36,637 bases of DNA from Patescibacteria group bacterium (GTDB taxonomy: Bacteria; Patescibacteriota; Minisyncoccia; UBA6257; GWB1-50-10): NCBI GenBank assembly GCA_038061595.1, contig JBBTYZ010000024.1, positions 1-36,637 on the forward strand. The letters are read 5' to 3'. Under the pieces are notes generated by a model. That model was not told where the DNA came from and ran no database searches. It was given only the letters and a program-made list of their open reading frames with translations. Below, one piece after another: positions 4,065-32,988 of the stretch (positions are counted from its first letter, which is position 1; each line of letters starts with the position of its first letter). Made by a program: the position numbers and the translations under genes.

Positions 4065-4334
4065 AGAACCTATCCCAATAATAATTCCTAACGCGCTACT
4101 TGCCAATTTGGTTTAGAACAAGGCGCGACGACGAGATGTACTCAGACAAGAGTCCATCAAGGAGAAGCAACGCAGTTATAAATCAAATTGGCTGTATCCC
4201 TTCGGGTTGCTGGCCAAATTTAAGATTTCTGCGTTACGCCTCGTCGAAGTATTGACACACATCTCCTCGGCAAGCCTGGAAATCTTAAATTTGTCCAAGC
4301 AACGCGTTCCGGGATTATTATTGAGATAGGTTCT
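4065..4334. repeat. 270-bp palindromic (MITE-like) element, copy 1
   Basis: Terminal IR AGAACCTATCCCAATAATAATTCC / GGGATTATTATTGAGATAGGTTCT (22/24 match), plus two internal IR-bounded arms. Confidence 0.75.
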
Positions 4335-4358: not shown

Positions 4359-4374
4359 TGTTTGTCAACAAACA
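4359..4374. promoter_or_regulatory. 16-bp palindrome TGTTTG-N4-CAAACA (candidate protein-binding site)
   Basis: TGTTTGTCAACAAACA, identical to the copy at 21982-21997. Confidence 0.55.
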
Positions 4375-4381
4375 AATGTAG

Positions 4382-4465
4382 TGCCGAGGGAGAGATTTGA
4401 ACTCTCATGCCCTTGCGGGCGCTAGCTCCTAAGGCTAGTGCGTCTGCCAGTTTCGCCACCTCGGC
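4382..4465 (-). tRNA. tRNA-Leu (anticodon TAG)
   Basis: GCCGAGG...CCTCGGC acceptor stem, CTAGC-CTTAGGA-GCTAG anticodon arm, long variable arm, GTTCAAATC T-loop; CCA not encoded. Confidence 0.95.
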
Positions 4466-6938: not shown

Positions 6939-7298
6939 TCAAGAACAGGTGATGCTTGCCCAAGGATAATCAGGGTTGCCGGTTAATACATGAAGAAGGG
7001 TTCCAATTATAACCCAAGCGACCAAGGCAATGGACAATCCGATAACAGCGCTTGTTATTATCTTTTTTCCAGTTGCGAATCGCTCCTCGGAACCTGCCGC
7101 AAACATTAGTATGATGGCGCCATACACCATCATTATAACCGCGATGGGGATGGAAACTTGAAATAGAAATTTGACGATATTCGAGGCAACTACAACCGCA
7201 TCGCAAAAATCACACGGGCCTTTTATGTTGCAGGTTATTCCGCCAGCGCCAGTATTCTGCCAAATATTTATAAATTGAGCCAAAAAAAATTCTTTCAT
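6939..7298 (-). CDS. TrbC/VirB2-like pilin with Cys motif
   Basis: CNIKGPCDFCD, then MFAAGSEERFATGKKIITSAVIG. Confidence 0.85.
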   Translation of the reverse strand: MKEFFLAQFINIWQNTGAGGITCNIKGPCDFCDAVVVASNIVKFLFQVSIPIAVIMMVYGAIILMFAAGSEERFATGKKIITSAVIGLSIALVAWVIIGTLLHVLTGNPDYPWASITCS

Positions 7299-7427
7299 CC
7301 CTCACCCTTGAAGGATTGCTGGCCTCAGCAATACCTTGTTGTTGCTTTTGATTTGACCTTTGGTATTTATGTTCTGGTTCATTGTTTTTATGAATTATTG
7401 ATTGCTGATCCTTCAAGGGTGAGGGAT
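7297..7427 (-). repeat. hairpin element A between stop and start codons
   Basis: Perfect 20-bp IR ATCCCTCACCCTTGAAGGAT (7297-7316 / 7408-7427), overlapping the upstream TAA and the downstream ATG. Confidence 0.85.
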
Positions 7428-8725
7428 TATAGTCTTCTTTGCATAAATCCGGACACTAATTCTTGGGCTTCTTTTAATACTCGAAGCGCATCTTGCCCAG
7501 ACAAAACCGATACTATCATGTCGGAGAAAACTTTGTCGGTCGCAGCGTTGTCAATCTGTGGCCAAGATTTTACAATAAGGGATTGTTTCGCAAAAACATT
7601 CAAATCAAGATCGTTTAAATATTTATTTATCAATTGACGCAAGGCCGGCGGGCGGCGCGTGATTTTGAGATAACTCTCTGCGTTATTTACATCTCCCGCA
7701 AGCGAGACCACAAAGTCGGCGGCAAGATTCAAGACCTTGCTCTGCCTTGAAACTCCGGTTGCCCAGTAATTAGGATAGCTTATTTGTTTTTGCGCTCCCT
7801 GCGGTTGGGGGATATCGGAAACGGAAAAACTCAAGAACGGATTTAATATTTTTAATTTAGGAATTACGGACTGGTAGTCAAAAATCATCGCTACCTTTTC
7901 TCCGCTAAAATCTCTCAAAGAACTGAACGAATCGTCATTCCAGGTATAAACATTGCTCCTTGGATTAGAAAATTGCGTATAAAAATTTAGAGAGTTCAAG
8001 CCTTCGTCGCTCGCGAAGGTCGCCGCCCGGAGATCGTCTGATACCATTTTTGTTCCGGTCTGGAGCATAAGAAAAGACAATAAATCTGGGGCCGAACCAA
8101 TGCTCTTCTGTGATCCACCTATTGCCGCAGCGGCGCGGACAAGTTTGCCCGATTCAGATTTTGTAAGCCGTGGGATTATCGCTTGCAAATCTTCCCAGGT
8201 TTTTGGCGGACCGCTTATCGCCGCCCCGTTAAAAAGGTCTGTATTGTAAATCAAGGCAAGCGAATCTATATACATAGGTAAGGCGTATATGCTTCCGTTC
8301 GCGCTTAAGTCTTTCTCAACTATTTGCGGGAAAAGGTTTCTTAGTTGAACAAGCGAAATCATTGTTGTGGGCAACGGGTACATTTTCCCCATATTCCTTG
8401 GAAGAGAGTTGTTGCGAATCATAAAAACGTCCGGACCCTTTCCTGTAGCAAGAGCATTCAACAAGGCCGGCTCGTAATCAGTTACAGAATCAAAGCCCCT
8501 GTATTCAACCGAAACATTCGGATATTTTATTTTGAAACTCGCTATCGCGGTATCATAGGCGGCACGAGTGTCGAAAACTCCCCAAAATTTGAGATTAGCC
8601 TGTATCTTCGTGGCATCATTGCTAGTATTTAGACCCGGTATCACGCCCGATAAGACGAGAACAACAATAATAATCACAAGACCTATTGATCCTGCTATTA
8701 TAAGTTGGGTTTTATTTAAATTCAT
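7427..8725 (-). CDS. extracellular solute-binding protein, family 1 (sugar-type)
   Basis: N-terminal TM, LKFWG, ALATGKGPDVF, IYALP...DSLALIYNTDLF, PPKTWEDL, FSGEKVAM. Confidence 0.9.
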   Translation of the reverse strand: MNLNKTQLIIAGSIGLVIIIVVLVLSGVIPGLNTSNDATKIQANLKFWGVFDTRAAYDTAIASFKIKYPNVSVEYRGFDSVTDYEPALLNALATGKGPDVFMIRNNSLPRNMGKMYPLPTTMISLVQLRNLFPQIVEKDLSANGSIYALPMYIDSLALIYNTDLFNGAAISGPPKTWEDLQAIIPRLTKSESGKLVRAAAAIGGSQKSIGSAPDLLSFLMLQTGTKMVSDDLRAATFASDEGLNSLNFYTQFSNPRSNVYTWNDDSFSSLRDFSGEKVAMIFDYQSVIPKLKILNPFLSFSVSDIPQPQGAQKQISYPNYWATGVSRQSKVLNLAADFVVSLAGDVNNAESYLKITRRPPALRQLINKYLNDLDLNVFAKQSLIVKSWPQIDNAATDKVFSDMIVSVLSGQDALRVLKEAQELVSGFMQRRL

Positions 8726-12344: not shown

Positions 12345-13436
12345 ATGAACACGACAAATAATAAAGCTTACTTGTTGCAACTTTTAAAAAGTAGGGGGGA
12401 CATACTCTCCGTGCTTAAAGTTGGCGATCTTGTAACTGGTGCAGTATTGGAGGGGGGCGCAAATAAAATAGTGGTTGACCTAGGGAAGCACGGCACCGGC
12501 ATTATATACCGCGGGGAGATACAAAACGCCCGCGAGTTAGTGAAAAATCTGAAAATCGGAGACCCCGTGCATGCCAAGGTCGTAGAGACGGACAACAGCG
12601 AAGGCGTTGTTGAACTATCCCTAACTGAGGCGGGGAGACAGAAAGCTTGGGCAGGGATAAAAGAGATCCAAGACAAAGACGAAGTAATAAAATTCGTTCC
12701 GAAGTCATTCAATAAGGGCGGGTTGATAGGAGAACTCCATGGAATTCAAGCCTTTCTTCCTATCTCACAACTCGGCACTGCAAATTATCCTAAGGTTTCA
12801 ACTGATGACAGAACACAAATAGCAGCAGCCCTGGAAAAACTTGTTGGCAAAGAAATAGAAGCAAAAATAATCGATGTTAATCCACGAACCAATAAGCTAA
12901 TAGTTTCTGAACGAGCCGCAACAGAAATTAGCCTCAAAGAACTCGCAAAAAATTATTCCGTAGGCCAAATTATTGAAGGCGTTGTCTCTGGAGTTGCTGA
13001 TTTTGGAGCATTTGTAAAATTTACGGACAATCCAGAAGTAGAAGGCTTAATCCACGTTTCTGAACTTGATTACAAGGTTGTAGACAACCCGAAAGAAATA
13101 ATAAACGTTGACGATGTCGTAAAAGCGAAAATCATAGACATAAAAGATGGCAAAATCTCTCTATCCTTGAAAGCCCTAAAGGAAGATCCTTGGCAAAGTT
13201 TGGCTATAAAGTATAAAGCGGGCGCCGTCGTAAAAGGCAGCGCTTACGCGTATCATCCGTTCGGAGCAATTATTAATTTGGACAAGGAAATTCAGGGACA
13301 AATACACGTCTCAGAGTTCGGAGGAGTGGAGGAAATGAAGAAAGAAATTGTTCTGGGCAAGGAATATAAATTTACAATAGAAAGTGTAAATCTAGAAGAA
13401 AAGAGAATAAATTTGAAATTCAAACCCGCGGCATAG
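12345..13436 (+). CDS. rpsA: 30S ribosomal protein S1-like (four S1 domains)
   Basis: NKGGLI..GIQAFLPISQL, GVVSGVADFGAFV, EGLIHVSEL, KISLSLK. Confidence 0.9.
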   Translation: MNTTNNKAYLLQLLKSRGDILSVLKVGDLVTGAVLEGGANKIVVDLGKHGTGIIYRGEIQNARELVKNLKIGDPVHAKVVETDNSEGVVELSLTEAGRQKAWAGIKEIQDKDEVIKFVPKSFNKGGLIGELHGIQAFLPISQLGTANYPKVSTDDRTQIAAALEKLVGKEIEAKIIDVNPRTNKLIVSERAATEISLKELAKNYSVGQIIEGVVSGVADFGAFVKFTDNPEVEGLIHVSELDYKVVDNPKEIINVDDVVKAKIIDIKDGKISLSLKALKEDPWQSLAIKYKAGAVVKGSAYAYHPFGAIINLDKEIQGQIHVSEFGGVEEMKKEIVLGKEYKFTIESVNLEEKRINLKFKPAA

Positions 13437-13706
13437 TCTTCTATCTCACAAATATCACGAATTTGGCGGAGCGAATTTTGAAGACAGATTCGCGACGCGA
13501 TGAGCGAAGTGTGCCGATAGGCACATGAGCGAAGAGCAACAAAGAAGCTGGCGAAAATTCGCCCGCTCCGCAAGAAGAAACTGAATAATGAGCGCTTTCT
13601 TCGTTGCTCCTCCTCAATGTGGTTATCACCACGCTTTCGTCGTCACGCCTCGAACCCATCTCATTATTAAACTTCCAAATTTCGCGAGATTTGTGGGATA
13701 GAAGAC
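13436..13706. repeat. 271-bp palindromic (MITE-like) element, copy 2
   Basis: Terminal IR GTCTTCTATCTCACAAATATCACGAATTTGG / CCAAATTTCGCGAGATTTGTGGGATAGAAGAC; two internal arms. Confidence 0.75.
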
Positions 13707-18846: not shown

Positions 18847-18950
18847 TTTCCTCTCATCATCCTTTTTCAAATGTTATTTTGCTGACCTCATACTATTTGT
18901 TTCGGAGCCTTTGTGTCAAGCCAAGCTTTGGGTTTATGATAATAAAAACA

Positions 18951-19526
18951 ATGAACCAGATAAAAAAGCCGACCCTAGGCTTAGATTTAGACGGAGTTAT
19001 CATCGATCACACCGAAAACAAGAAAAAACTGGCAAAAGATTTCGGTTTTGAGATCGCTACAAACGAAACACCAACCGACATAATAAAACATAAATTACCA
19101 AAAGATGTTTGGAGAAAAATCCAAACGCTCATTTATGACGATCCGGTGGTTGGTTTTTCTCCTCCGCTTGTAAAAGGTGCGGCAGCTGGCTTAGAATTGC
19201 TGAGCGAAACCGGATTTAAATTCTTCTTGATATCAAGAAGAAAATCAGAGGGATTGCCGATAGAGCTTTTAAAACGAGTGGGTCTTTGGCCTCGTTATTT
19301 CAATAAATCAAATACCTATTTCGTGAAAGACAAGGAAGCTAAAAACGAAAAGGCCCGAGAATTGGGGGTAAGCGCATACATCGACGACCAACCTTCTGTT
19401 TTAGAAAAATTATTGTCTGTACCTAAAAAAATATTGTTTGACGAATATGGGGTGTTCCCAGAAAGCAAAAATTACACGAAAATTAAAACATGGGCAGAGT
19501 TTCTGGAAATACTAAAAAGTTTATAA
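18951..19526 (+). CDS. HAD-family 5'(3')-deoxyribonucleotidase-like protein
   Basis: GLDLDGVIID (motif I), ISRR (II), K (III), YIDD (IV). Start reassigned to ATG 18951. Confidence 0.8.
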   Translation: MNQIKKPTLGLDLDGVIIDHTENKKKLAKDFGFEIATNETPTDIIKHKLPKDVWRKIQTLIYDDPVVGFSPPLVKGAAAGLELLSETGFKFFLISRRKSEGLPIELLKRVGLWPRYFNKSNTYFVKDKEAKNEKARELGVSAYIDDQPSVLEKLLSVPKKILFDEYGVFPESKNYTKIKTWAEFLEILKSL

Positions 19527-21823: not shown

Positions 21824-21981
21824 ATTAAAAACACAGAAAACACAGAAAAGTTAAAAAACCCGATAGTCGCATGAAACCTACACTGCTTGACCAAAAGTAC
21901 CAAACAATGTGAAACGCTGTGTTTTCTTAACAAGCCAATAATGCCATTAAACCTATGTTTTTCATTTTTTATGTTTAAAAA

Positions 21982-22060
21982 TGTTTGTCAACAAACATTT
22001 TAGAAGCCCGTTTTGTTTGTCAGCAAACAATTTGGGGTCAGAAATGTTTGCCGACAAACA
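21982..22060. repeat. three phased 16-bp palindromes TGTTTG-N4-CAAACA
   Basis: Copies start at 21982 (inner TCAA), 22014 (TCAG) and 22045 (CCGA); periods 32 and 31 bp. Confidence 0.8.
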
Positions 22061-22090
22061 ATTTGAGGGTTAAAATACTAAAACCCGATA

Positions 22091-32866: not shown

Positions 32867-32988
32867 ATCCCGTTAGAGACAAACAAAGCATCAATCTCAT
32901 GATTTACAACAAAACAAAAACAATCCACACAACAAAGGTCAGGTCGTCTATCTACGGAAGCGCAATCGCTTCCTGTCTCTAACGGGAT
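32867..32988 (+). repeat. hairpin element B between stop and start codons
   Basis: Perfect 15-bp IR ATCCCGTTAGAGACA / TGTCTCTAACGGGAT; TGAA direct repeat on both sides. Confidence 0.85.

Follow-up and report, generated by a model that had tools for sequence, protein, structure and literature searches.

A gene-less hairpin on a pilin start codon in Patescibacteria belongs to a mini-element family with a small GIY-YIG nuclease as its likely partner

Comparison with related genomes indicates that a 131-nt hairpin separating a transporter gene from a pilin gene in a Patescibacteria group bacterium is an insertion, since orthologous junctions lack it. It is a gene-less copy of a family of mini-elements that a nuclease probably mobilises, and its 26-codon internal frame probably serves as a constitutive relay to the pilin start codon, which the stem buries. 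The insertion, the family and its polarity, the nuclease partner and the retention of an open frame were all established by comparing sequences. The window in this study is the whole stretch of 36,637 nucleotides, which is contig C24 of a source genome of 548 kb that is 93.6% complete.

The element occupies positions 7297..7427 on the minus strand, a length that includes the A of the upstream stop codon and the AT of the downstream start codon. Its arms form a 20-bp terminal inverted repeat (5′ arm at 7408..7427 and 3′ arm at 7297..7316, both minus strand); they are complementary at 20 of 20 positions and enclose a loop of 91 nt. Upstream lies a gene for an extracellular solute-binding protein of 432 residues (7427..8725, minus strand; Pfam SBP_bac_8), here called the transporter gene, and the stem begins with the final base of its TAA (7429-7427). 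Downstream lies a gene for a T4SS_pilin-family protein of 119 residues (6939..7298, minus strand; PF18895), the first of three consecutive T4SS_pilin genes on this strand, and the AT of its ATG (7298-7296) makes up the last two bases of the stem. The perfect stem linking this stop codon to this start codon had been described correctly, coordinates included, in the original prediction made from the letters alone. The 3′ arm holds the last codons and the TGA of an internal frame, a G-rich stretch 5′ of the start codon and the AT of the pilin ATG. The internal frame itself (7302..7382, minus strand; 26 codons), the predicted relay uORF, shares its reading phase both with the pilin gene and with the nuclease gene found in full-length copies. 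Its TGA is separated from the pilin ATG by 3 nt, just as had been noted.

Two smaller features of the loop that had been picked out earlier are likewise present in the sequence. The motif AAAGGTCA (7354..7361, minus strand) marks one loop lineage and occurs also in elements with a sister type of arm, one of which, with other arms and the same motif, lies within the window (32867..32988, plus strand). The distance from the motif to the end of the element is 65 nt here and 62 nt in 11 relatives. The internal 3′ hairpin (7311..7337, minus strand; core at 7332-7315) includes the innermost 6 bases of the 3′ arm, and therefore competes, as an alternative structure, with the inner end of the long stem. 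In 11 hand-picked relatives, 85.5% of the cells of this small hairpin are paired and 5 of its 10 pairs show two-sided changes. When the RNA of the whole hairpin was folded, as the original prediction had proposed, the energy was -53.2 kcal/mol (z -7.3) and 0 of 200 shuffles folded as well; no stem of at least 16 bp with a loop of at least 25 nt occurred in any of 3 shuffled genomes. The hairpin is not a chance structure. A search of the hairpin against Rfam gave 4 weak matches, all far below the gathering score and none intron-like, a search of the element for an internal sigma-70 promoter gave none, and the uORF peptide has no NCBIfam match.

Is the hairpin an original part of this junction? 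The transporter gene is present in 38 of 40 relatives, and 29 loci were taken for comparison. In none of the 28 relatives with an adjacent pilin match (L007-L035) was an arm or any inverted repeat of at least 10 bp found at the junction, and the gap is shorter than 50 nt in most of these junctions. Among 26 metagenome loci, 18 could be scored (five were truncated and three had no adjacent pilin match), and the studied arm type was at the transporter-pilin junction in none of the 18; five of them have other inverted repeats of 10-19 bp there. At metagenome locus L283, the same ATG is occupied by an element of the sister type. The closest empty site is a 176-nt contig from run X4, in which the transporter and pilin genes are joined by a 7-nt spacer and which differs from the pilin gene at 16 of 145 bases (~89% identity); this site is represented by one contig with a depth of 3.9 and 25 bases on its short side. 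Empty sites had been expected to have an overlapping stop and start codon. Empty sites were found, but the closest one has the 7-nt spacer and not an overlap. A precisely excised form of this strain was not found in the contigs of 7 DNA runs, which could miss such forms, and no RNA data set was listed among the sequencing runs with this sequence.

Where else do these arms occur? A genome scan for further arm pairs had been suggested, and its outcome was divided, with no further copy of the studied arm type in the source genome and many copies in related genomes. Matches to the arm with at most one mismatch were found in 22 of 300 genomes of the order, up to 39 in one genome, and a control in the same search gave single matches in 6 genomes. 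The right arm together with a start codon was found in 18 of 95 genomes of the family, a few of them by chance. A 16-base arm scan of all GTDB genomes gave 119 loci, one of which is a true element and the others chance matches or other repeats. Where relatives of the element or its nuclease are named, they are Patescibacteria (for example L141), and no element was found in viral contigs. The closest loop to the studied one, in genome G708 of the same family, is 66% identical. In the relatives, 98.2% of the arm positions are paired, and 4 pairs have changed on both sides.

The first census, of 75 elements selected in 16 genomes by arm sequence alone, showed a start codon followed by a long frame at one end of 60 elements and at the other end of none; in 42, the first arm base finishes the stop codon of a long upstream frame. 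A pooled set filtered for a downstream frame contains 117 elements from 29 genomes (101 gene-less, 8 of gene size and 8 compound), counts that overstate independence, as copies of the family are related by descent. Nearly all of the 117 end on a start codon, and a TA precedes the 5′ arm in 83 of them, compared with 32 of the 341 ATG starts of the source genome. The downstream genes, as assigned from their translations, presumably include ribosomal-protein, gyrase, repair, secretion and metabolic genes. Because elements with these arms number 117 in 29 related genomes of Patescibacteria, and the full-length members carry a nuclease gene only, the element is not pilin-specific. Regulation specific to pilin was rejected, since the element is missing at the junctions of relatives and is found before unrelated genes. 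The studied hairpin is one orphan copy and tells nothing special about pilin control. The idea of a small mobile element at stop/start junctions is supported by the empty orthologous sites, by the same arms at unrelated junctions in 29 genomes and by the versions that carry a gene.

The source genome has about a dozen elements with sister arms, two of which have a GIY-YIG gene and four of which have AAAGGTCA. A class-wide search of 401 genomes, 19 of them others of the same order, for this motif together with the arm found the combination in the source genome only. In sister-arm elements the two bases beyond the arms are duplicated at the start codon in 23 of 30 cases and a TA precedes the element in 1 of 30; thus, the landing pattern differs between the arm types. 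Some loci show unusual arrangements. In genome G089, the 3′ arm of L170, L270 and L271 ends without a start codon, and in at least one of these the loop frame continues without a phase shift into a pilin-like gene, whose N-terminus it provides; this may be a co-option. Genome G237 (L196, L253, L155, L199, L245, L248 and L249) has nested and tandem forms, namely a full element in which a mini-element precedes the start of the nuclease gene, and units of the order arm-loop-arm-loop-arm. Stacked elements are found among L264 (G025), L276 (G018) and C37:6525-6704 of G000; in one type, the studied arm type is inserted on an ATG rebuilt by a sister-type element, and in another, a small sister-arm unit is nested in a sister mini-element.

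How the element enters a junction was examined at its ends. Without exception, the 3′ end coincides with the AT or GT of a start codon; at the 5′ end the sequence is mostly TA-A. If this reflected plain insertion into a TAATG overlap, the empty orthologues should therefore read TAATG. In genus g114, none of the 12 junctions with an automatically matched empty orthologue did so in this test for a target-site duplication, in which spacers are poorly conserved; the spacers of the empty orthologues were mostly 1-9 nt, with one overlap of 4 and some long ones. One of five further junctions read by eye was TAATG, and the empty orthologues overall have mostly 1-10-base spacers. It is somewhat probable from these comparisons that the element replaces the old spacer. 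Such replacement is unproven, because spacer lengths are poorly conserved even at unfilled junctions (1/16, 3/17 and 2/17 have the same spacer length as in G308). In the closest relative, the empty site with its 7-nt spacer reads TAATG at either end, which fits plain insertion at a TAATG overlap too.

Does the internal frame have a role? As the arm supplies the stop codon, the loops were examined for a retained ATG followed by an open frame. Of 70 mini-elements, 28 have an in-phase frame of at least 12 codons, against 5.4 expected from loop shuffles, and the other two phases were at chance (4 and 3 against 3.4 and 2.3). Counted by loop cluster, the frame is kept in 13 of 17 clusters at 72% identity and in 23 of 40 at 80%. 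A second set, obtained afterwards, has an in-phase frame in 28 of 32 elements against 3.0 expected, one element being counted in both directions and one coming from a first-set genome. Sister-arm mini-elements have it in 26 of 27 cases (11.2 expected). Within codons 5-20 ahead of the arm stop, all 102 mini-elements together have 83, 161 and 110 stop codons in the three phases. Leaving aside genus g114, G153 and G097, a split made after the first frame counts had been seen, they number 7, 112 and 57, and within these lineages 76, 49 and 53. The 12 copies of G005, which differ by 27%, have 0 stops in the uORF phase against 18 and 8 in the others, for which a star-tree simulation gives 0.017, a value that overstates independence.

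A conserved peptide was considered for the studied lineage and rejected, as pN/pS in 11 relatives with the motif at 62 nt is 0.92 in frame, compared with 0.58 and 0.67 out of frame; a pN/pS of 0.48 was seen in G005 only. No codon run able to sense a signal is conserved. Since the peptide varies so freely and yet the frame is 23-30 codons long in 47 of 55 frame-bearing copies, the openness and length of the frame, judged by these comparisons, are kept and not its sequence. The A-richness of uORF starts does not significantly exceed that of out-of-frame ATGs (p 0.15). Copies without the frame are not more often placed directly against an upstream stop codon (29/35 against 33/44, p 0.43). The loop shares 19 exact bases, in the region of the uORF start, with the start of a HAD-like gene (18942-18960 of the window; gene start at 18951), at p 0.006 against shuffled loops, and of the 10 other mini-elements of the genome one has a match at p <0.05. 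Capture of a host start region was considered on this account; the match was read as likely convergence, and G005 mini-elements have similar A-rich starts.

In a free-fold model, the unpaired fraction is 0.18 for the pilin start region and 0.65 for the uORF start. The pilin ATG lies 128 nt and the uORF ATG 44 nt from the transporter stop codon. Re-initiation is described as needing very short distances between stop and start, falling off within about 20 nt (PMC10666635). Thus, the ribosome of the transporter gene should not be able to reach the pilin ATG, and probably not the uORF ATG either, while the 3 nt from the uORF stop to the pilin ATG satisfy the distance that the 128-nt gap does not. 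A ribosome may start in the open A-rich loop, unwind the 3′ arm, stop 3 nt before the pilin ATG and then re-initiate. Opening of a start codon by RNA unfolding and by re-initiation are both described for ordinary gene pairs (PMC12548453). In full-length copies, the frame of the nuclease gene itself would do the same job, and such a relay may keep the cost of the element low in densely packed operons. Of the translational switch proposed in the original prediction, what stands is the frame, which is open far more often than by chance and would fit ribosomes opening the stem; no sign of regulation or of a pilin-specific switch was seen. The internal frame is thus likely to be a translational relay and not a regulated switch. 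With regard to a possible role of the 3′ arm as a Shine-Dalgarno sequence, GGAG precedes 31 of 341 starts in the source genome against 10.2 expected, and no 16S was found there with five motifs.

The same mobile origin could also go with a uORF that is a functionless by-product, the stem being opened by the transporter ribosome, which melts the 5′ arm, or by RNase III. In favour of this reading, the stop and last codons of the frame are dictated by the arm, the lack of peptide constraint in the studied lineage noted above fits it as well, and in the model the pilin start region goes from 0.18 to 0.36-0.37 unpaired when the footprint of a terminating ribosome is blocked. RNase III was found in 5 of 5 genomes tested. 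Furthermore, copies of genus g114, G153 and G097 have the frame in 2 of 39 cases and lack it in 37 of 39, with ribosomal-protein genes downstream; therefore, the relay is dispensable in these lineages, and their frame-less copies may rely on an upstream ribosome melting the 5′ arm or on cutting by RNase III. However, a by-product would not account for one specific phase being open in 13 of 17 clusters, whose loops are mostly less than 72% identical, nor for the frame in the second set or the empty phase of the diverged G005 copies, and I regard this reading as rather unlikely.

The preferred reading, a family moved by its own nuclease, takes its partner from the full-length elements. These have the same arms, are 291-303 nt long (about 295 bp) and have as their sole gene a GIY-YIG nuclease of 87-88 residues, as assigned by Pfam. 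The gene starts just inside the 5′ arm and ends at the arm-encoded TGA, exactly as the uORF does. All gene-carrying versions found encode a GIY-YIG protein only. A tree of 31 small GIY-YIG proteins groups the 12 that have the studied arms on one branch (98/96), two of them lying at contig ends with the left arm only and one having an arm displaced by a nested mini-element, and 3 proteins with sister arms form a separate clade (98/99). In this tree, nuclease clade and arm type co-segregate. The best matches of the nuclease among solved structures are the UPF0213 proteins PDB 1zg2 and 1ywl (E 1e-4 and 3e-3), which are distant from it and neither of which is recorded as part of a mobile unit. In the mini-element L280, the nuclease gene has undergone a direct internal deletion (p 0.005), and 1 of 70 loops is derived from the gene at p <=0.01. 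The studied loop was also considered as a recognisable deletion of the gene; the alignment by eye was good, and a shuffle test rejected it (p 0.70). The source genome, 93.6% complete as it stands, has no nuclease of the clade of the studied arm and two of the sister clade (43-45% identity); therefore, the copy is an orphan, or its partner is unassembled. On this evidence the nuclease likely mobilises the family. It would recognise the arms, probably in single-stranded DNA. One join would link the 3′ end with a start codon's AT, the other would link the 5′ end with a nearby upstream TA, and the old spacer would at times be lost in the process.

As side observations, a third small GIY-YIG gene without inverted-repeat arms lies at C37:13205-13432 of G000, flanked by a tRNA-like gene and a duplicate of the 5′ part of that gene. 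Neighbouring GIY-YIG lineages with other arm variants (L405-L408 and L462) suggest more pairs of arm and nuclease.

Could an ordinary transposase instead have moved the element, as a classical MITE or REPIN, with the GIY-YIG gene as mere cargo? Bacterial MITEs such as Correia/NEMIS, ERIC, RUP and YPAL, as described in PMC2229807, are similarly shorter than 200 bp, intergenic and AT-rich inside, have terminal inverted repeats and form a long stem-loop in transcripts, and some MITE frames fuse to host genes. The present element likewise is 131 nt long, encodes no enzyme, has 20/20-bp terminal inverted repeats and is known as dispersed copies with filled and empty sites, and genomes G005, G279 and G025 have many mini-elements and no nuclease of the clade. 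In contrast to the MITEs of that account, a TA duplication does not show clearly, with at most a shared AT seen at the target site, insertion runs strictly in one direction so that the 3′ end lies on a start codon, and the internal frame ends beside a host start. Arms shared with a transposase-encoding insertion sequence were not found; the full-length partner is a lone 88-residue GIY-YIG protein. In a search confined to this family, a Y1 transposase (PF01797) was missing in 4 of 5 genomes tested, including the source genome and the two richest in copies. REPINs with their RAYT (Bertels and Rainey 2011, PMC3116915) resemble the family in that inverted arms and a spacer form one hairpin unit that is non-autonomous, extragenic and tied to one single-copy enzyme, as described there, but the enzyme here is GIY-YIG and not Y1, the arms are not palindromic REP units, and the position is fixed on start codons and not random in extragenic space. 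The lack of Y1 in these genomes, the co-segregation of clade and arm type and the end of the nuclease gene being built into the arm make an ordinary transposase improbable.

Among the systems compared, single-domain GIY-YIG proteins of ~90 residues flanked by their own repeats are known as Ssn nucleases with NTS/SRM repeats, and Chenal et al. 2025 (PMC11893778) liken the Ssn layout to an insertion sequence. As presented in that paper, SRMs are short self-contained hairpins, whereas here half-arms lie at opposite ends of the unit, and the SRM pattern was found in 0 of 83 elements and nowhere in the source genome. The main text of the paper makes no mention of Patescibacteria or start codons. 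In ordinary translational coupling, as described in PMC12548453 and PMC10666635, a start codon hidden in a structure is similarly opened by a ribosome that ends a few bases away; here, however, both the structure and the upstream frame are brought by a mobile element. In sum of these comparisons, the element resembles a MITE or REPIN in its working but lacks the transposase feature of both, and it lacks the SRM motif of Ssn. A full-text search, which mostly excludes subscription journals, found no literature on such elements in Patescibacteria, and the GIY-YIG mini-element family is apparently undescribed.

A dedicated conditional switch that controls pilin translation through the competing internal hairpin appears very improbable. 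Such a hairpin is present and has two-sided changes in the 11 chosen relatives, but the transporter-pilin junctions of relatives lack the element, and it lies alike before ribosomal-protein, repair, secretion and metabolic genes. The features of a regulatory leader peptide or attenuator are also missing, as no fixed gene family lies downstream and neither a peptide (the pN/pS of 0.92) nor a signal-sensing codon run is conserved, so the pilin-specific switch of the original prediction was abandoned. Least probable of all is an intervening sequence cut from the mRNA with its ends rejoined, for although removal at the two AT ends would yield a canonical TAAUG overlap and RNase III is present, no Rfam match is intron-like, the loops vary widely in sequence and length, and a frame that splicing would make needless is kept in ~9/10 of sister-arm mini-elements and in many of the studied type.

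Patescibacteria genomes are very small and tightly packed and leave little room for insertions. The family shows one way in, which is to land on a start codon, rebuild it and carry a frame that would feed ribosomes to it. If the 88-residue nuclease suffices for movement, the full-length copies would be among the smallest self-mobilising DNA units and would represent a new role for GIY-YIG proteins; the matching of arm type to nuclease clade provides ready test substrates. A bolder formulation, which I hold only tentatively and think doubtful as a whole, is that these are a new class of ~295-bp transposon in which a lone 88-residue GIY-YIG nuclease would swap the stop-start spacer for the element, and in which gene-less copies would be selected for a relay frame free of content. 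If it is true, a selfish element would rewire the translation of essential operons without breaking them.

Several other repeats were seen near the locus and in the genomes studied. Two units of ~270 nt bounded by inverted repeats, with GC-rich interiors and arms unrelated to the studied ones, lie at 4065-4334 and 13436-13706 of the window; the type of the former recurs at C12:17763-18033 and C19:8037-8305 of the source genome, and a similar end is found at the transporter-pilin junction of L298. At C18:6085-6490 and C6:27839-28453 of G000, pairs of 28-30-base palindromes surround single small genes. Three short direct repeats with a palindromic core lie at 21959-22083 of the window, upstream of a UPF0102 gene, and a related sequence is found at 4359-4382, beside a tRNA-like gene.
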